This document shows positions 25,772 through 33,357 of a DNA stretch of 34,419 nucleotides, piece after piece; the first letter of the stretch is position 1, and every line of letters starts with the position of its first letter. A program made the position numbers and the translations under genes. Where the stretch lies: IMG/VR virus record IMGVR_UViG_2671180847_000009. One strand, written 5' to 3'. The stretch comes from a virus (Duplodnaviria > Heunggongvirae > Uroviricota > Caudoviricetes). The notes under the pieces are model-generated. The model was not told where the DNA came from and searched no databases. It was given only the letters and a program-made list of their open reading frames with translations.

Positions 25772-25877
25772 GGATTTTTAAATCCCGTTTTCGCCTGTTT
25801 TGTGCGCGCTTCATATATCGCGGCGCGTTTTTTGCTCATTTACGGGATTTGTGAATCCCGTTTTTGTCTGTTTTTTG
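25772..25877. repeat. Two ~33-bp direct repeats, each with an internal GGATTT/AAATCC inverted repeat (candidate parC-like centromere/operator)
   Basis: Copy 1 at 25772-25804 (GGATTTTTAAATCCCGTTTTCGCCTGTTTTGTG), copy 2 at 25844-25877 (GGGATTTGTGAATCCCGTTTTTGTCTGTTTTTTG), about 28/33 identical; copy 1 lies just upstream of parM, copy 2 inside the 3' end of gene A. Confidence 0.4.
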
Positions 25878-28633
25878 TTTCCACTGGTCAGGCCACTCCG
25901 CAGCAGGTCTGCTTTGCGGCGGGCGCGTTCAGTGGTTTCACTGATTCTCTGTTCGTGCTCTGCGTCGCGGATGGCGCGCAGCATGTCAGAAAGCACGGTA
26001 ACGGGTGTTTTCATGGTGTTCTGGTCTTGCTGAAGTGTGGATGCCAGGCGTGCGGCGGCTTCAGGGTCTGATGCCCCTAGTTGTTCCAGATAGCTGGCGA
26101 CCGGGTTATGGCGGATCTCCGTGCTGCTTACGCCGTGGTTACGGCTCAGGCGTTGCCAGAGCTGCGTGATTCGGCTGTCCGGGCGGGGATCCGGTTTGCG
26201 TACAATTTCAAATCCCTGCGGTGCAATGATGCTGCCGTCAACGTACAGGCTGCCGCCCCGTAACAGGTGCTGCATCTGCTGTTCACCGATATGCAGGCCG
26301 AGAGATTCGGCAGACTTCCGCCATTCTTTAGCGAGTAATTCGTGGTTATCAGGCAAAGGCCGCTGCTGTTTGCGGCTCTGTGTCCAGGTCTGCATTTCAT
26401 CACTGCTGTTTTTTGCCTGTTTGTCACGCAGCGAACGCATCAGCGCCCGGCGTTCGTGCCGTTTCAGTGAGCGCATCCATTCATCCACATCAACGCCGTC
26501 AGGAAGCTGCGGCCACGGTGCTGGCCGTTCTTCCGGCTGTTCTGTCCCGTTGTTGTCCGTTTCCTGTACACGGGGACAGTTATTGCCACGAGTCCAAGGG
26601 GCGGCAGGGCCGCCCTGAAGGTCAAAACCATTTTCGTGGGCGTTGTCTTCTGGTTCTGGTTTACGTCTTACCAACTTCCAGTTATCCGGATGCGTGCACA
26701 CACGGGAGGATTCCCCGATGAGTGGTGACCAGATCCCGTAAATCTGTACGCTCTGTTCGCCGTAATCGTTCAGCTCATCTGCGAGGTCGTAGGCGGTGCG
26801 AATCAGGTAGTCCTTGCGTGGAACAAGCACGCCACCCTGTTTTTCAATGTAGGTGGCAAAACACCCGGCATCGGCGGCAGCGAGTACCGCATCCATTGCA
26901 TCATCTTTCAGCCGTTGCGGGCCTTCCGGATTGCGTGCCATCTGGCTGGCAAGGCGGCGCAGTTCACGCCACACCTGACGGGAGGGGATGCCAAAGAACT
27001 GGAACTGACGGACCCGGTGAAGGCGCGCCCAGCCGATGGCGCGCTCCACGCTCTCGGCCATTGATTTTCCGGTTTCGTGGTCAACGCGTGGCTTGCCCGT
27101 TTTCGGGTCGATGCCATCCACGGCGCGGCTGTCCAGGTTCTTTCCGATGTAGGTGGCGATGTAGCTGGTTGGTGTGCCTTTTGAGCCGTCGACATACTCC
27201 GCCTTAAAACGCGGAGTTATGTCATCGCCCAGCTCGTGGCGGTCCTCCTGAATGGCAATATCGCAGACGTGGGACACGATGGTTTCAATCTCGTCCGGAT
27301 GTGCAAAGACCATCATATGCCAGTGCACAGTGCCGTCATGGTGAGGCTCCACCGTGCGGATGCCATACCAGCGCAGGCCGTCGCGGTTCAGTTTTTTGCG
27401 GACCGCCGCAAAAAACGTGTTAACCAGGTAATCGCTGGAGTCGCGCATGGTGGCCCCGTTCCATTTGGGGTTCGGATGACCGTTCTCCGTTGTTGCGTGG
27501 TATTTTGACGGGCAGGTGACGGTCAGAAACACCGCTCTGTCGCCACGGGCTTCGGCCAGAAGTTCCAGTCCCTTCATGGTGGCCATCATTTCTGCCTTAC
27601 GGTGAACCGGGTTACTTACTCCCGCGTAATACACCGTCTCGAGATCAATCGTGAACCCGTCTTCATTTTCCAGCATGAAACTTTTCAGGAAATCGCGTGT
27701 TTTCTCGCGCTGTGCGCGAAACTCGCTTAACGCGTCCTGGCTCAGATAGGGCGATGTTTTTCTGGAAACCAGACAGGCGGCGCGGAGTTGTTCTTCTCTC
27801 CACTCGCAACGTAACAACCACAGTTTGCGTTTCCACCATTCCGCACAGGTCAGGCGAAGGATTGCGCCCGGCAGCAGCTCCGTGTCTGGTTCGTTTCTCC
27901 GGTCTTTGTCTGTTGTCAGTGTGTCATAATGCGGCGGCGTGACGTGCAGGTGTAACGCCATGCGAGCCAGCATCTGATATGCCTTCAGTGCCACCTCCAT
28001 GGTCAGCTCGCCATCGGTCGCGCCAAAGCCATCGCAGAGTGTTTCGAAGGTGCTGCTGAACATCGCCGCCGTCATGGTGGCCAGCGTCTGTATCTGGTGT
28101 TTGTTGAGCTGCGGCAGGTAAAGCAAATCGTCCAGGCGTTCGCGTCCGGCAAGGGAGCGATACCCCTGTGTCAGCCAGCGGCTGTCGGTGCGATCCAGAC
28201 GTTCGAATATTTTGCGCAGGGTTCCGCGTGCATAGCGTTCCGCCTGCCAACTCTTTTTGCCTTTCCGGCGATCGGCTTCCTGTTTTTTGCGCAGGAAGGA
28301 GAGGTGGCGAATAAGCGGATCGCGCAGATAGGATGGCAGCAGGCGCAGCGAGGCCATGGCTTCATCCACCGCACCGCGTGCCTGTTTTCTGGCTTCTCTG
28401 GCCAGTGTGATGGTTTTGTCCTGTTTTTCCTGTGCGTCCAGGCTTTTATTAATCAGGTTGCCCAGCGGTGTGGCGGAGAACGCCGCATCAGCCATTTCCT
28501 GGCGGCGCTCGTTCTCTGCCCGGTAGGCATCCAGCCAGGAGGAAAGTGCGGATTCAGGAGCGGGGATCTCCGTTCCTTCACGCCCCACTGCGTGGCGCGG
28601 TTGTTGCCAGTCCCTGATGTACTCTGTCGTCAT
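25811..28633 (-). CDS. A: Replication initiation endonuclease, P2 gpA-like (rolling-circle Rep), 940 aa
   Basis: HUH motif in TVEPHHDGTVHWHMMVF and catalytic-Tyr region GTPTSYIATYIGK; located where P2 gene A lies relative to cox and Q. Confidence 0.8.
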   Translation of the reverse strand: MTTEYIRDWQQPRHAVGREGTEIPAPESALSSWLDAYRAENERRQEMADAAFSATPLGNLINKSLDAQEKQDKTITLAREARKQARGAVDEAMASLRLLPSYLRDPLIRHLSFLRKKQEADRRKGKKSWQAERYARGTLRKIFERLDRTDSRWLTQGYRSLAGRERLDDLLYLPQLNKHQIQTLATMTAAMFSSTFETLCDGFGATDGELTMEVALKAYQMLARMALHLHVTPPHYDTLTTDKDRRNEPDTELLPGAILRLTCAEWWKRKLWLLRCEWREEQLRAACLVSRKTSPYLSQDALSEFRAQREKTRDFLKSFMLENEDGFTIDLETVYYAGVSNPVHRKAEMMATMKGLELLAEARGDRAVFLTVTCPSKYHATTENGHPNPKWNGATMRDSSDYLVNTFFAAVRKKLNRDGLRWYGIRTVEPHHDGTVHWHMMVFAHPDEIETIVSHVCDIAIQEDRHELGDDITPRFKAEYVDGSKGTPTSYIATYIGKNLDSRAVDGIDPKTGKPRVDHETGKSMAESVERAIGWARLHRVRQFQFFGIPSRQVWRELRRLASQMARNPEGPQRLKDDAMDAVLAAADAGCFATYIEKQGGVLVPRKDYLIRTAYDLADELNDYGEQSVQIYGIWSPLIGESSRVCTHPDNWKLVRRKPEPEDNAHENGFDLQGGPAAPWTRGNNCPRVQETDNNGTEQPEERPAPWPQLPDGVDVDEWMRSLKRHERRALMRSLRDKQAKNSSDEMQTWTQSRKQQRPLPDNHELLAKEWRKSAESLGLHIGEQQMQHLLRGGSLYVDGSIIAPQGFEIVRKPDPRPDSRITQLWQRLSRNHGVSSTEIRHNPVASYLEQLGASDPEAAARLASTLQQDQNTMKTPVTVLSDMLRAIRDAEHEQRISETTERARRKADLLRSGLTSGNKKQTKTGFTNPVNEQKTRRDI

Positions 28634-28639
28634 ACTGAT

Positions 28640-29005
28640 TTACTTCGTCATTCCGTTCAGAGTGTCACGGCAAACGGCAGCCAGCCGCTGAATCTCCAGC
28701 ACAGTGTCTTCTGTGTCGGCATGGTGGTGTGTGATGCGGATGCTGTCGGCAATCACATCGACGATCGCAGAGGATGGGCGCTGGTAAATGCCAATAACGG
28801 ACGGGATGCCGGCTTCAATGCGGTAAAGCCTGTAATTCCCCTCGTGGCTGTCAATCATGTAGCGACCATCAATAACAATTTTTCCGTCAGCGAGCTGCGG
28901 TACAGGCAGGGATTTCAGGTACATGTCATAACGTTCACGCACGCGAACGGCAAGATCACGCTCTGTGTTGAGCAGGTATTCAAGAAAGTCGTTGGCGAGA
29001 ATCAT
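28640..29005 (-). CDS. Hypothetical protein (121 aa) immediately upstream of gene A
   Basis: AAGAGGA RBS; 6-nt gap to A start; no family recognised (occupies roughly the position of P2 B but shows no recognisable similarity). Confidence 0.4.
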   Translation of the reverse strand: MILANDFLEYLLNTERDLAVRVRERYDMYLKSLPVPQLADGKIVIDGRYMIDSHEGNYRLYRIEAGIPSVIGIYQRPSSAIVDVIADSIRITHHHADTEDTVLEIQRLAAVCRDTLNGMTK

Positions 29006-29077
29006 TGCGGCAATCCTCTTGTTACAGATGTGCGAAGGCCTCCCGCCGCAAGGTGCAGGAAAGGCCCGGAACAGGAA

Positions 29078-29308
29078 TTAATGGAGTTTGTTTTGCTGCT
29101 GGATGAGATCCTGAAGAGACAGGAGGTCTTCCGCCAGATAGCTGAATACAGCGGCGCAGTAGTCGGCTGAAATAGTGCTGTTGAGTCTGTGCAATGTGTT
29201 GGATTGCATGATAAAGGCGATGTGTGCAGCGCGGGTGAGTCTGCGGTCGATTTCAGTCTGGATGTGACGACGCTCCGCGATAGCGCGGTGCTGTTTGCGG
29301 TTTGCCAT
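29078..29308 (-). CDS. Hypothetical protein (76 aa)
   Basis: ATG with AAGAGG RBS; preferred over the overlapping 205-aa ORF in another frame. Confidence 0.4.
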   Translation of the reverse strand: MANRKQHRAIAERRHIQTEIDRRLTRAAHIAFIMQSNTLHRLNSTISADYCAAVFSYLAEDLLSLQDLIQQQNKLH

Positions 29309-29628
29309 GATATGTGGCCTCTTGTAGTAAGTTGTGAAAACTCACCATCCAGAGGTTCCAAGCTCGGGGTGGTGAGACGTACAGGGTTGGAACTACCGGC
29401 TACAAGAGATCCCGGCCCGACCGAAATCGGCCCCGTACGCCCCACCATAATTCGTGTGCGAAAAAGACGTGGCAATACAGTTCGCACAAAAAAACCGCTG
29501 GCGCGGTTGTGCGCTCTTGTAGTCTGCGGGGTTCCAATCCCGGCACCCGTTTTATGAGGTGCAGCGGAAATGTAACCTGACTGATTGCGGCATGGCAAGC
29601 GGTTTTTTTGTGTGTGCATAGTGGTTAC
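29309..29628 (-). promoter_or_regulatory. Structured 320-bp intergenic element inside the early operon (terminator/attenuator-like hairpins, possible promoter or small RNA)
   Basis: No credible ORF; minus-strand RNA contains hairpin CCGC-GCCA-GCGG followed by U7 (plus 29488-29506) flanked by mutually exclusive stems CGCACAA/TTGTGCG and GTGCGAA/TTCGCAC; further long-range complementarity CTCTTGTAG/CTACAAGAG (29320-29328/29401-29409). Confidence 0.3.
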
Positions 29629-30180
29629 TCAGTCCGGTAGCAGTTCGCAAAGCACGGTGTCAGCGGCGGTATATCGTGCGTAAAGCCGGGCGGGAACCCA
29701 TCTTTTAAGGGATATCCCGGCTGTGTCCCGGATGTGCTTCCTGATTTCGCTGAATGTCATCCCCTTCTCATCACGCAGTTCAGTTACCAATTCCACCAGG
29801 TGATCGCTGTATCTGGTTCTGTGGTGGAGTTCCCCGTATTTCCTGAACCGATACCCTCTTTTTCTCAGGTTTAGTTCCACCGTGGATGGCGAGCGCCCCA
29901 ACTCATTCGCGAGTTCCCGGATAGTTTTTGTGTGGCGATTCCTGATGAGCATGCTGAGTTCTTTTGTGCTCAGGTGGGGGCGTTTGGCGTGAATAACCCC
30001 CTGAGAGAGCAAAAGGCGGATGCGACTTCGTATTGCTGACTCGGTTCTCTGAAGGTACTTTGTCAGCTCCGGCGCTGTGTGGGAGTGGTATAAAGTGGCT
30101 AAAAGTTCATCCTCCTGCTGTGTCCATGGTTTTACATGTGCCGGAGCCACACCAGGTGTACCCATTGGTTTGAGTTTCAT
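29629..30180 (-). CDS. Putative DNA-binding protein with tandem HTH-like repeats (183 aa)
   Basis: Three repeats resembling Myb/sigma-70 region-4 type HTH (W-x-x-x-E-D-E-L-L, L-x-x-x-I-R-E-L-A-x-E-L-G-R-S, G-M-T-F-S-E-I-R-K-H-I); AAGGGAG RBS. Confidence 0.4.
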   Translation of the reverse strand: MKLKPMGTPGVAPAHVKPWTQQEDELLATLYHSHTAPELTKYLQRTESAIRSRIRLLLSQGVIHAKRPHLSTKELSMLIRNRHTKTIRELANELGRSPSTVELNLRKRGYRFRKYGELHHRTRYSDHLVELVTELRDEKGMTFSEIRKHIRDTAGISLKRWVPARLYARYTAADTVLCELLPD

Positions 30181-30757: not shown

Positions 30758-30957
30758 CTGCGTGGCTCCTGTACCTGTCGGATAAGATTCACCCGCTCCA
30801 CGTTGGTGGCGCAGAAGTAAGTGTCGTCAGTGAGATAAATGTGATGCGCGTCAGGTTGCGAACGGTGACGGTCGAGCGTTTTAATCAGCCGTTCGTCAAC
30901 TTCGTATTCACGCCCTCTGGAGGTGAAACGAATGACGGAAAAACGCTTAATTGCCAT
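30754..30957 (-). CDS. Hypothetical protein (67 aa)
   Basis: AAGGGGG RBS upstream of ATG; coupled to downstream gene. Confidence 0.4.
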   Translation of the reverse strand: MAIKRFSVIRFTSRGREYEVDERLIKTLDRHRSQPDAHHIYLTDDTYFCATNVERVNLIRQVQEPRR

Positions 30958-30980
30958 TGCGCCCCCTTTGTCCAGTAACC

Positions 30981-31391
30981 CTATGCGTTAAATACGGTGT
31001 GTTGGGCGTCATCAATGAATGCAACTTGAGAGCGCTCTATCAGGCGGAGATTTGTCAGAATCTCTGACTCCCTTATGGGGTGCGGAGTGATCAGGTATTT
31101 ATCCTGTAATCCGGCGATAATGGTGTATCGCTGTAGCTCCGAGCCAATTGTGTAAATAAGGCGTCCGGTGTTAGATAAATCCAGTCCGGTGATTGGTTGT
31201 GTTCTGAGAACCACCAGTTCAGCATCCTGTTTTGCGATAATTTCGGCTGCTTCTGCCGTGACTCTTGCGACTATCAGTGTGTGGATTGCGACGTCCATAT
31301 GTGCATTTGCCACGGCTTTTTTCGCTACTTCGTTTTCTGTCTTTGAAATTTCTTTCAGTGCTCTGATAATACCTTCTTCTTTTGCGTTCAT
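30981..31391 (-). CDS. Hypothetical protein (136 aa), AT-richer than backbone
   Basis: GGAGAT RBS; no recognisable family; composition by eye differs from flanking phage genes. Confidence 0.4.
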   Translation of the reverse strand: MNAKEEGIIRALKEISKTENEVAKKAVANAHMDVAIHTLIVARVTAEAAEIIAKQDAELVVLRTQPITGLDLSNTGRLIYTIGSELQRYTIIAGLQDKYLITPHPIRESEILTNLRLIERSQVAFIDDAQHTVFNA

Positions 31392-31483
31392 TTTATATCT
31401 CCGTTATTTATGTGTGCGAATACCTCCGCGAATGCGGATGGTTTTCAGGTTTTCGGGTTTAATCTGGTGTTTTATTTAAGCTG

Positions 31484-31597
31484 TTATTCGTCAGTGAAAA
31501 AGCGTTCAATCTTTTTTACTGAATGAATAATTCGCATAATCCCAATGGCGCAGGCCACCGAAATAATCAGAACAAGCCATGAGATAAATATACTCAT
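31484..31597 (-). CDS. Small hydrophobic ORF (37 aa, single predicted transmembrane helix)
   Basis: ATG overlaps the stop of the upstream 80-aa gene (ATGA); peptide MSIFISWLVLIISVACAIGIMRIIHSVKKIERFFTDE; below the ORF-track length cutoff. Confidence 0.35.
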   Translation of the reverse strand: MSIFISWLVLIISVACAIGIMRIIHSVKKIERFFTDE

Positions 31598-31836
31598 GCG
31601 ATATTCCCCAGCTTATACGGTTCAATGCGCTCTCCGCATTCTGCGGCGCAGACGAGTTCGGAAAGCTCGTTAATCGCATCCAAATCGTCAGCGTAAAAAG
31701 CTACGTCATAAAGACTTCTGATAGCCCTCGCTAATGAATCATGGGCTGCGTGTTCAGCGTGGGGGCCTGACGTGTTTAAGCGAAAATGAAAGCGCTCAAG
31801 TGCTTTATTAACGAGAGTTTTGTATTCTTGGTCCAT
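31594..31836 (-). CDS. Hypothetical protein (80 aa)
   Basis: ORF in early operon; no family recognised. Confidence 0.4.
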   Translation of the reverse strand: MDQEYKTLVNKALERFHFRLNTSGPHAEHAAHDSLARAIRSLYDVAFYADDLDAINELSELVCAAECGERIEPYKLGNIA

Positions 31837-31847
31837 TGTAACGCCCT

Positions 31848-32125
31848 TTAATCTGCCTTCTGGATTTCTGCTTTTGAATCCATGCAGATAATTTCGATGT
31901 ATGGTTCATCGCTATTAATCTGACGTGCCTTTTCAGCTTCGCTAATGATTTCTCGTACGGTCTGGTACGGAAGCTCCACAGTCAGGCGCGTACCGTTCAG
32001 ATAAACGTAAGTAGCTGCGTTTTTTCGGATGGAACAACTCCGTCAATGGCTGATGCGCGTAATAACAGTTCACCGCGAAAATCAATAAAACGGAGAAATA
32101 CACCTTGTGCATGCTCTTTGGTCAT
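31848..32125 (-). pseudogene. Gene interrupted at an A6 run: frameshifted ORF (42 aa in frame 0 from MTKEHAQ, continuing in the -1 frame for ~50 more codons)
   Basis: Start ATG 32125 with AGGTG RBS; frame 0 stops at 31997; -1 frame is open from the run of six A (minus strand, plus 32020-32025) to TAA at 31848-31850. One extra A would give a continuous 92-aa ORF. Confidence 0.4.
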
Positions 32126-32135
32126 AAAGCACCTG

Positions 32136-32486
32136 TTATAAATCAGCCTGTTTAATAAAACTTTGCCCGCGAAGCAGACGATCAACCGTGCGAAGTGCTT
32201 CGTATAATGTGAAATCCTGCCTGAACTGATTGTCGCCGTTGCTCAGTGCAAAAATGCGGTTTCCGGTAAATGGGTTGCGCTGGCATCTGTGGACCACGAT
32301 TCCAGCCTTCTCAATCAGCCAGGTGTGTTCACCAATTTGTTTTACGGGATGGCCATCAGGTGTGGCGTGTGTTTCGCTCAGGCTGTAGCGAGAGTTGCTA
32401 CGTGATGCACTGGTAGCGAAACGGTTAGCGTGGCGTTCCGCACCGTTGCGGAAGCGCTGCTGTGAAGAATTGCGCCGTTCCTTCAT
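32136..32486 (-). CDS. Hypothetical protein (116 aa), first gene after cox-like
   Basis: ORF in early operon; Arg/Ser-rich N-terminus; no family recognised. Confidence 0.4.
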   Translation of the reverse strand: MKERRNSSQQRFRNGAERHANRFATSASRSNSRYSLSETHATPDGHPVKQIGEHTWLIEKAGIVVHRCQRNPFTGNRIFALSNGDNQFRQDFTLYEALRTVDRLLRGQSFIKQADL

Positions 32487-32523: not shown

Positions 32524-32949
32524 TTATGCTGCTTTACCGCTGATATTTCTGTTTCGTCTGCCACTTGTTGGCTTAAACAAAAACAGACGGTTTTCCCAGT
32601 CGTGCCATTCCTGAGGTGCGTTTTCGATGAGGCGATCGCATGCTTCATCCCACGCTTTTCTGTTGATGTAGAGTTCAGCGTTTCCGCCTGGTTTGAGAGG
32701 GTCCGCCATATACACCGCAGGTAGCTTTCCTGCTTTGGCCATGCTTACGATGGCGTCAACGGTCTTTCCGATATACATCGCAAATCCTTCTTTTGACAGG
32801 AGATGCGAGGGATTTTCTGAAAGTCGAATCTCTTCACGTTCACGTGCTTTGCGTCCTGTTTTTTGATGCTCCCCTTCTGGCATTTCTGGCAGGTGATCGC
32901 ATCGTGTTCCGCAAAGTGACTCAGGCGCGTTTTGAGTGCTTTCTTGCAT
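32524..32949 (-). CDS. cox: Cox-like excisionase/early repressor with N-terminal extension (141 aa)
   Basis: Segment FAMYIGKTVDAIVSMAKAGKLPAVYMADPLKPGG...AW parallels P2 Cox (FAKLIGKSTGAVRRMIDKGKLPVIDMTDPQSASG...AW); start at second ATG (32949) with GGAGG RBS; divergent from C. Confidence 0.55.
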   Translation of the reverse strand: MQESTQNAPESLCGTRCDHLPEMPEGEHQKTGRKAREREEIRLSENPSHLLSKEGFAMYIGKTVDAIVSMAKAGKLPAVYMADPLKPGGNAELYINRKAWDEACDRLIENAPQEWHDWENRLFLFKPTSGRRNRNISGKAA

Positions 32950-33063
32950 CTGATATCCTCCGCCATTGGTGCTTTTTCTAATTGGCACTAGTTGGAACCA
33001 CTTAGAACATTCTTTTGCTGTTCATATGTGGTGTTAATCTACACATATGTAGGAGTTTGTCAA
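32950..33063. promoter_or_regulatory. Divergent immunity promoter/operator region (Pe/Pc equivalent)
   Basis: 114-bp region between divergent cox-like and C genes; inverted repeat CATATGTG-N11-CACATATG at 33023-33049; TTGCTG -35-like hexamer at 33015-33020. Confidence 0.45.
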
Positions 33064-33357
33064 ATGGACATTCCTCAAAAAATTCGCGTCATGCGTAAAT
33101 CTGAAGATCTGACTCAGCGGGAATTCGCTGATATGATTGGAATTTCTTATTCTGCTCTGACCAGTTATGAGTATGGTCGTAACCTTCCTGGTCTTGAGAT
33201 CACTATCAAGCTTTTCAAGCACCCGAGATTTTCTAAATACCGCGACTGGTTTTTGTTTGATGAAGTTGAACCCAAGGCCGGGCAGGTTGTACCGGCTCTC
33301 GCACACATTGGGCAAGACGAAGCGGAATCATCCCGCTCCGGCAAGAAAACTGGTTAA
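33064..33357 (+). CDS. C: Immunity repressor, P2 C-like (97 aa)
   Basis: KIRVMRKSEDLTQREFADMIGISYSALTSYEYGR...PALAHIGQDEAESSRSGKKTG aligns closely with P2 C; start at MDIPQK with AGGAG RBS. Confidence 0.8.
   Translation: MDIPQKIRVMRKSEDLTQREFADMIGISYSALTSYEYGRNLPGLEITIKLFKHPRFSKYRDWFLFDEVEPKAGQVVPALAHIGQDEAESSRSGKKTG

Follow-up and report, generated by a model that had tools for sequence, protein, structure and literature searches.

A conserved 37-codon reading frame overlapping the DUF4754 gene of P88-like prophages encodes a predicted single-helix membrane peptide

In the early region of a virus of the class Caudoviricetes (IMG/VR record IMGVR_UViG_2671180847_000009, analysed as one stretch of 34,419 nucleotides (nt) which is called the window here), an 80-amino-acid (aa) gene of the DUF4754 family and a gene for a 136-aa protein are separated by a gap of 202 nt (31392-31593), in which a short open reading frame (ORF) of the minus strand is found. 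The locus raises the question of whether this small ORF is a gene at all and, if it is, what its product might do. A preliminary description of the sequence had reported a 37-codon frame whose ATG overlaps the TGA of the upstream gene. Both its position and the overlap were confirmed, as the ATG (31597-31595) shares letters with the stop codon of the DUF4754 gene (31596-31594). The frame had also been said to fill most of the gap, which is correct for 114 of the 202 nt but leaves 92 nt. Its length alone is unremarkable, the six frames of the window containing 226 ORFs of 30-60 aa, or about one per 150 nt, and it is the pattern of conservation which exceeds chance.

This pattern was assessed on a comparison set of 85 related loci, taken from annotated records, IMG/VR and two genomes, which correspond to 66 distinct stretches from DUF4754 to the next gene. 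The frame is open and the ATGA junction identical in all 66, with a length of 37 aa in 62 of them, 45 aa in three and 30 aa in one. Pairwise Nei-Gojobori counts over codons 3-32 yielded a ratio of nonsynonymous to synonymous differences (pN/pS) of 0.24 in frame (bootstrap 95% confidence interval 0.12-0.46), and none of 2000 bootstrap replicates over codons reached 1. The control frames gave 1.35 and 1.12 for the other sense frames and 1.52, 1.32 and 0.34 for the antisense ones, the last value being expected because that frame shares its wobble positions with the small ORF; for DUF4754, the same comparison returned 0.12. Substitutions are located mostly at the third codon position, the column entropy summed over codon positions 1, 2 and 3 being 3.7, 2.4 and 9.95 respectively. 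Three deep lineages compared pairwise over 35 codons have nucleotide differences distributed by codon position as 10/3/17, 12/5/22 and 12/4/19, and the start, the length and the hydrophobicity of the small ORF are retained between them with 30-39 of 105 nucleotides differing. At the level of sequence comparison this is strong evidence that the amino-acid sequence is under purifying selection, and the small ORF is almost certainly a genuine protein-coding gene. The preliminary description, which had treated it as such, had named lack of conservation in relatives as the outcome that would speak against it; none was seen, the frame being conserved in all relatives examined.

The encoded product is very probably a membrane helix. 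Residues 3-21 form the best 19-residue window of the peptide, with a mean Kyte-Doolittle hydropathy of 2.68 which ranks first among the 226 ORFs of comparable size, and the Hessa-scale sum of this transmembrane (TM) segment is -2.9 kcal/mol. AlphaFold2 (AF2), supplied with the family alignment, modelled one continuous helix over residues 2-35 with a predicted local distance difference test (pLDDT) score of 88. The claim of a strongly hydrophobic single-helix peptide, together with the stretch quoted for it, is thus upheld. The same description had the hydrophobic segment followed by a basic tail; the segment is there, but the tail is of mixed charge rather than simply basic, with four lysine or arginine residues (K/R), one H and three D/E. 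Since residues 1-21 are devoid of charge and four K/R occur within the next 11 residues, the positive-inside rule indicates that the peptide probably has an N-out/C-in topology in the inner membrane, with the tail predicted to be cytoplasmic.

Conservation extends over both parts of the peptide. The conserved positions are S6, W7, a small residue at 13, A17, G19 (replaced in a few outlying sequences), R/K22, K28, I30 and E31. In the tail, the pattern R-I-I-x-x-h-K-x-I-E-x-h-F is retained across lineages, and K-x-I-E is present in members which are 51-59% identical. The tail and the TM part are equally constrained (pN/pS 0.236 and 0.238, respectively), while the last few residues are free. A lipoprotein reading of the motif SVAC (residues 13-16), which loosely fits a lipobox, was rejected: residues 1-7 contain no K/R and hence no basic n-region, and in distant members M or F takes the place of C16.

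The physical coupling of the small ORF to the 80-aa early gene, which had also been proposed beforehand, turned out to be invariant, the ATGA overlap being found in every relative examined. In every context examined an 80/81-aa DUF4754 or DUF4754-like gene lies directly upstream with the 4-nt overlap, and linkage and overlap hold where DUF4754 is only 30-41% identical and where cox, C, int and the downstream genes differ. In the deep lineages, a purine run (GAGGTGG, GAGGAG or GAGAGGG) is positioned 4-7 nt 5' of the ATG despite different encoded amino acids. The distribution of DUF4754 is as narrow as that of the small-ORF family. The AF2 model of the DUF4754 protein is an acidic three-helix bundle with an extended C-terminus (pLDDT 89), and the protein is predicted to be soluble.

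Because the tail is constrained like the TM segment and the gene is always accompanied by DUF4754, the most likely reading, which is nevertheless put forward tentatively, is that the peptide acts as a specific membrane partner or modulator; a generic membrane-damaging peptide is less likely. The ORF, its overlap, the purifying selection, the hydrophobicity, the synteny and the distribution follow directly from the sequences, whereas we infer translation by coupling, the topology, the timing of expression and this role as partner or modulator. Ribosomes terminating at the TGA of DUF4754 would reinitiate at the overlapping ATG, aided by the Shine-Dalgarno-like run, and this would couple production of the peptide to that of DUF4754 in the early lytic phase. 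The peptide would then insert as a single N-out/C-in helix, with residues 3-21 spanning the inner membrane, the two uncharged N-terminal residues in the periplasm and residues 22-37, an amphipathic tail rich in K/R, on the cytoplasmic side. The cytoplasmic tail and a small-xxx-small face of the helix could contact either DUF4754, to tether it or act together with it, or an inner-membrane protein of the host.

It is also conceivable, though doubtful, that DUF4754 and the peptide constitute a two-part membrane-targeted early module specific to the P88-like phages of Escherichia. The K-x-I-E tail would in that case recruit the acidic DUF4754 to the inner membrane, where the pair would inhibit or re-direct a host envelope machine, such as FtsH, a transporter or the divisome, or else a defence located in the membrane. 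If true, the module would be among the commonest uncharacterised microproteins of E. coli phages, because about a quarter of the complete E. coli genomes carry it.

Several observations weigh against a role as partner or modulator. The composition of the peptide, taken alone, fits a membrane-active toxin equally well. Some genomes have truncated alleles (28, 30 and 34 aa), the 28-34-aa alleles being found on dozens of contigs. A Foldseek search with the DUF4754 model returned nothing significant, with best E-values of 1.4 in the PDB and 0.76 in the BFVD viral library, and since these fold searches were empty DUF4754 gives no functional lead. No paper was found mentioning DUF4754, PF15946, the accession numbers or the peptide sequence. 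Finally, an identical 41-aa peptide adjoins versions of DUF4754 which are 39% and 78% identical to that of the window; this argues against co-evolution of a tight interface between the peptide and DUF4754, and a host target fits at least equally well.

Among the alternatives, a membrane-damaging toxin, Kil or holin-like factor is unlikely but retains some weight. Such a peptide would oligomerise in the inner membrane and dissipate the proton-motive force or block division, thereby contributing to host shut-off or to the timing of lysis. Its size and its architecture, an N-terminal TM helix with a charged tail, are similar to those of Hok, Fst and TisB-type toxins and of small holin or antiholin peptides, a terminator-like hairpin is present on the antisense strand just downstream, and the gene is located in a repressor-controlled lytic operon, so that lysogens would tolerate toxicity of its product. 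However, an exhaustive profile search over 1.84 billion representative proteins recovered, among the clusters read, only the peptide's own family, and there was no match in Pfam, PHROGs, NCBIfam or PADLOC (Pfam and PHROG at E <= 0.1). Specifically, no holin family profile was matched in Pfam or PHROG at that threshold, and no similarity to Kil families emerged in Pfam, PHROG or the profile search; a sequence search of the PDB with the family profile gave no match at E <= 10. An endolysin-like gene with a Peptidase_M15_4 domain (13573-13914) is 17 kb away with its neighbours, among late genes. Furthermore, the small ORF has no promoter of its own, being placed mid-operon with an ATGA overlap, no antisense promoter conserved across lineages was found, and an Rfam search of positions 30900-32200 gave no match. 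The equal constraint on tail and TM part suggests a specific contact, which is compatible with toxicity. Kil proteins of the lambda type are not known to be transmembrane peptides. The toxin, Kil-like or holin-like role suggested in the preliminary description draws on composition, and neither a family match nor a position in a lysis cassette was found to accompany it.

A superinfection-exclusion or anti-defence factor, which would block the entry of DNA from other phages or neutralise a membrane-bound host defence during replication, appears slightly less probable still. Such roles are frequent among the small membrane proteins of phages, examples being T4 Imm and Sp and HK97 gp15. As would be expected of arms-race genes, the family has a narrow, lineage-specific distribution limited to Escherichia and Citrobacter, and it belongs to a mosaic accessory part of the early region where neighbours are freely exchanged. 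On the other side, this reading is met by no PADLOC or other match, and the operon is of the C-repressed early type, so that an exclusion factor would protect the infected cell only and not the lysogen.

It is very improbable that only the act of translation matters, with ribosomes being kept on the 200-nt spacer to prevent Rho-dependent polarity or to set the translation of the next gene while the peptide itself is functionless. The ATGA coupling, the position between two genes of a long operon and the variable C-terminal length (37, 41 and 45 aa) would be in line with this. Nonetheless, the peptide sequence is under purifying selection, and its hydrophobicity persists across the deep lineages together with S6, W7 and K28, and with G19 in nearly all members; moreover, the small ORF cannot couple to the next gene because its stop lies 92 nt before it. 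That the small ORF is a chance frame in a non-coding spacer is hardly credible, as the frame-specific substitution pattern and the conservation effectively refute chance, common as frames of 30-60 codons are in the window.

The gene is not new. GenBank, RefSeq and UniRef have it under the labels hypothetical protein or membrane protein, and novelty is low; the term 'hidden', applied to it earlier, has to be abandoned because annotations of it exist for the phages P88 and vB_EcoM-569R5 and, from PGAP, for E. coli chromosomes. In P88, gp07 (YP_009113050.1) is a 37-aa product annotated as 'membrane protein' with 97% protein identity to the window peptide. The position of its family also matches, since it directly follows DUF4754, which it overlaps by ATGA, and the operon is likewise the early one of a prophage of the P2 family. 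The label in vB_EcoM-569R5 is 'putative membrane protein', that of the PGAP entry WP_074500842.1 is hypothetical protein, and the UniRef name is 'Prophage membrane protein' (A0A0V9G2H9). The exact window peptide occurs on at least 1000 contigs. The RefSeq records NC_049344 and NC_049341 are without a feature for the small ORF. The subject of the P88 paper is receptor recognition.

At a broader scale, about a quarter of the complete E. coli genomes (1360 of 5426) have the 600-bp region, and the small ORF was found in only 14 of 50,697 phage records, all of them P88-like phages of Escherichia or Citrobacter. The profile search returned 17 clusters, and every cluster read belongs to the small-ORF family, with six short fragments left out; those clusters that were looked up are all from E. 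coli. The query of the word-indexed protein search consisted of the peptide and five native upstream in-frame residues. The window peptide is 73-97% identical to the 37- and 45-aa members and 51-59% identical to the 41-aa ones. The latter include the distant forms P0122 (MSVFLSWVILIISVLMAIGIMRIIEALKNIESLFTGEERRK) and P0123/P0150 (MNILISWLILILAIICAVGIMRIINGIKTIESLFTGDKRHK), and two large 41-aa clusters bear E. coli names, each being present on roughly 1000 contigs. In the 45-aa form, a T-run near codon 33 has lost 1 nt, so that the frame reads on into the spacer, and the 41-aa form of the deep lineages terminates in a basic ...GE/DxRxK tail. The length classes are seen around positions 31484-31500 of the window and in the relatives L011, L015 and L052. 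In a scan of species-representative genomes, the family was seen only in E. albertii and in one contig assigned to 'Vagococcus sp. WN89Y' (locus L004, NZ_JBQPOM010000071.1, 2501-2925). The latter is an Escherichia-type prophage region with 86-88% identity, and its Gram-positive label is most likely due to contamination or to a mislabelled assembly.

The features of the locus are collected in the table.

Table. Features of the small ORF and of the surrounding early region, in window positions.
Feature	Position	Strand	Remarks
Integrase gene	33388 to window end	+	
C-type helix-turn-helix (HTH) repressor gene	32992-33357	+	
Promoter-like site TTGACA-16-TAGATT	33036..33063	-	upstream of cox; consensus match only
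Cox gene	32524-32988	-	
DUF4761 gene	32136-32486	-	
phrog_3800 gene	about 31848-32122	-	
DUF4754 gene (PF15946, phrog_2549), 80 aa, upstream partner gene	31594..31836	-	full-length match, E 7e-48
Shine-Dalgarno-like GGGGAA	31604..31609	-	6-8 nt 5' of the ATG, inside the 3' end of DUF4754
ATGA start/stop overlap of DUF4754 gene and small ORF	31594..31597	-	same in 66/66 distinct sequences
Small ORF, 37 codons and TAA stop, peptide MSIFISWLVLIISVACAIGIMRIIHSVKKIERFFTDE	31484..31597	-	sequence, relatives
Predicted TM segment, codons 3-21, IFISWLVLIISVACAIGIM	31535..31591	-	hydropathy, AF2 model, conservation
Juxtamembrane mixed-charge tail, codons 22-37, RIIHSVKKIERFFTDE	31487..31534	-	selection, distant members
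GC-rich 5-bp hairpin TCCGC-N4-GCGGA	31425..31438	.	in the 92-nt spacer 31392-31483
Promoter-like site TTGAAA-16-GATAAT	31343-31370	+	inside the 5' end of the 136-aa gene, pointing to the hairpin
Next operon gene, 136 aa, phrog_9338	30981..31391	-	relatives have other genes there
136-aa, 67-aa, MarR-like and Ead/Ea22-like genes, then further genes	from 30981-31391 downward	-	
gpA replication protein gene	25811-28633	-	

The window is a P88-type P2-family prophage (Xuanwuvirus, Peduoviridae), and its nearest phage records are Citrobacter phage phiSM and the Escherichia phages vB_EcoM-569R5, 705R2, P88 and P884B11. The gene order int, C, cox, DUF4761, phrog_3800, DUF4754, peptide and onwards to gpA is the same in P88 and relatives. 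The small ORF lies about 1.4 kb into the early lytic operon, whose probable early promoter, going by its match to the consensus, is the site upstream of cox. By analogy with P2, and from the gene order, the operon would be repressed by C in lysogens. Directly downstream of the spacer, the 136-aa gene of the window has a 67-aa gene in its place in P88.

The phrog_3800 gene is split into two frames in the window, where a poly-A-containing stretch (homopolymer 32020-32025) is 1 nt shorter. It is whole in relatives (92-95 aa in P88 gp05 and L002), and the identical IMG/VR contig L006 is split in the same way; the split could reflect a pseudogene, a homopolymer sequencing error or a slippery site. 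Elsewhere in the window, two Rfam matches at gathering score, a C4 antisense RNA (79 bits, 29365-29452) and the Hfq-binding RNA isrK (71 bits, 29488-29562), are found side by side on the minus strand. A gene for a 76-aa 'Derepression protein' (29078-29308; match to PF25738 below the gathering score) comes directly after them. This arrangement looks like an RNA-controlled antirepressor module of the P1 c4/ant or IsrK/AnrP type, and the 205-aa ORF 29002-29619 which covers both matches is probably spurious. A 183-aa ORF of the minus strand (29629-30180) gave weak PADLOC matches (E about 5e-4) to CasR, Csa3 and CARF-associated winged helix-turn-helix models, which probably reflect only a generic winged-helix DNA-binding domain.

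The 92-nt spacer behind the small ORF is well conserved even where unrelated genes replace the downstream one. Two pairs of its hairpin have changed from CG to UA in a compensatory way, one in 2 and the other in 6 of the 34 distinct sequences, and both the paired cells and the covariation score exceed those of all 500 shuffles and of all slid controls. The hairpin is retained, with different loops, in deep lineages having different flanking genes. Read on the plus strand, antisense to the operon, the hairpin leads into a T-run, and in three lineages it is scored as an intrinsic terminator; the sense strand has an A-run before it and no U's after it, and the sense-strand fold has a z of -4.3. 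The hairpin may keep antisense transcription out of the early control region, or it may be a stability or processing element of the early mRNA. The plus-strand promoter-like site pointing to the hairpin is within chance expectation (4 sites found, 3.7 expected), and P88, L086 and L089 gave no counterpart. An antisense RNA of a type I toxin-antitoxin system, running for about 70 nt from this site to the hairpin over the ribosome-binding site and start of the 136-aa gene, was considered and remains unsupported, the promoter match being at chance level and having no counterpart in the three other lineages scanned. Antisense promoter-like matches inside the ORF in L086 and L089 are by-products of ATT-ATT (Ile-Ile) codons, and the window lacks them.

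The locus thus provides a well-supported real gene of less than 40 codons which some annotations omit. Together with DUF4754, the small ORF makes a clear and testable two-gene unit for the early functions of the P2 family, in around 25% of complete E. coli genomes. For discovery it offers little, its architecture being common to many microproteins of phages and bacteria, and the modest interest it holds comes from its wide spread in E. coli.

With regard to known systems, the window peptide and P88 gp07, WP_074500842.1 and A0A0V9G2H9 share family and position, with no substantive difference. The type I toxins (Hok/Gef, Fst, TisB, Ldr and ZorO) are like the small-ORF peptide in size, in the single hydrophobic helix and in the polar or charged C-terminal tail, but the small ORF has no homology to them and lacks its own promoter, no conserved promoter for an antisense RNA was found, and it is placed mid-operon with a stop/start overlap. 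Holins and antiholins and the Kil proteins (lambda Kil, Rac KilR and Mu Kil) are likewise small phage proteins, and expression confined to the lytic cycle would be expected here from the gene order. The peptide is predicted to be embedded in the membrane like holins and is the product of an early-operon gene like Kil, yet, in contrast to holins, its gene is outside the lysis cassette, between cox and gpA, and it is smaller than typical holins. KdpF, CydX, AcrZ, MgtS and MgrB are regulatory small membrane proteins of bacteria which are co-encoded with their partners. There is no sequence relationship to this class, and the putative partner DUF4754 is predicted to be soluble instead of forming a membrane complex, but the peptide resembles these proteins in its size of 50 aa or less, in its single TM helix and, going by its predicted topology, in having a short N-terminus in the periplasm and a charged tail in the cytoplasm. 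Like them it is encoded in an operon and would be co-translated with another protein, and its helix bears a conserved small-xxx-small arrangement (S/A13 and A17).

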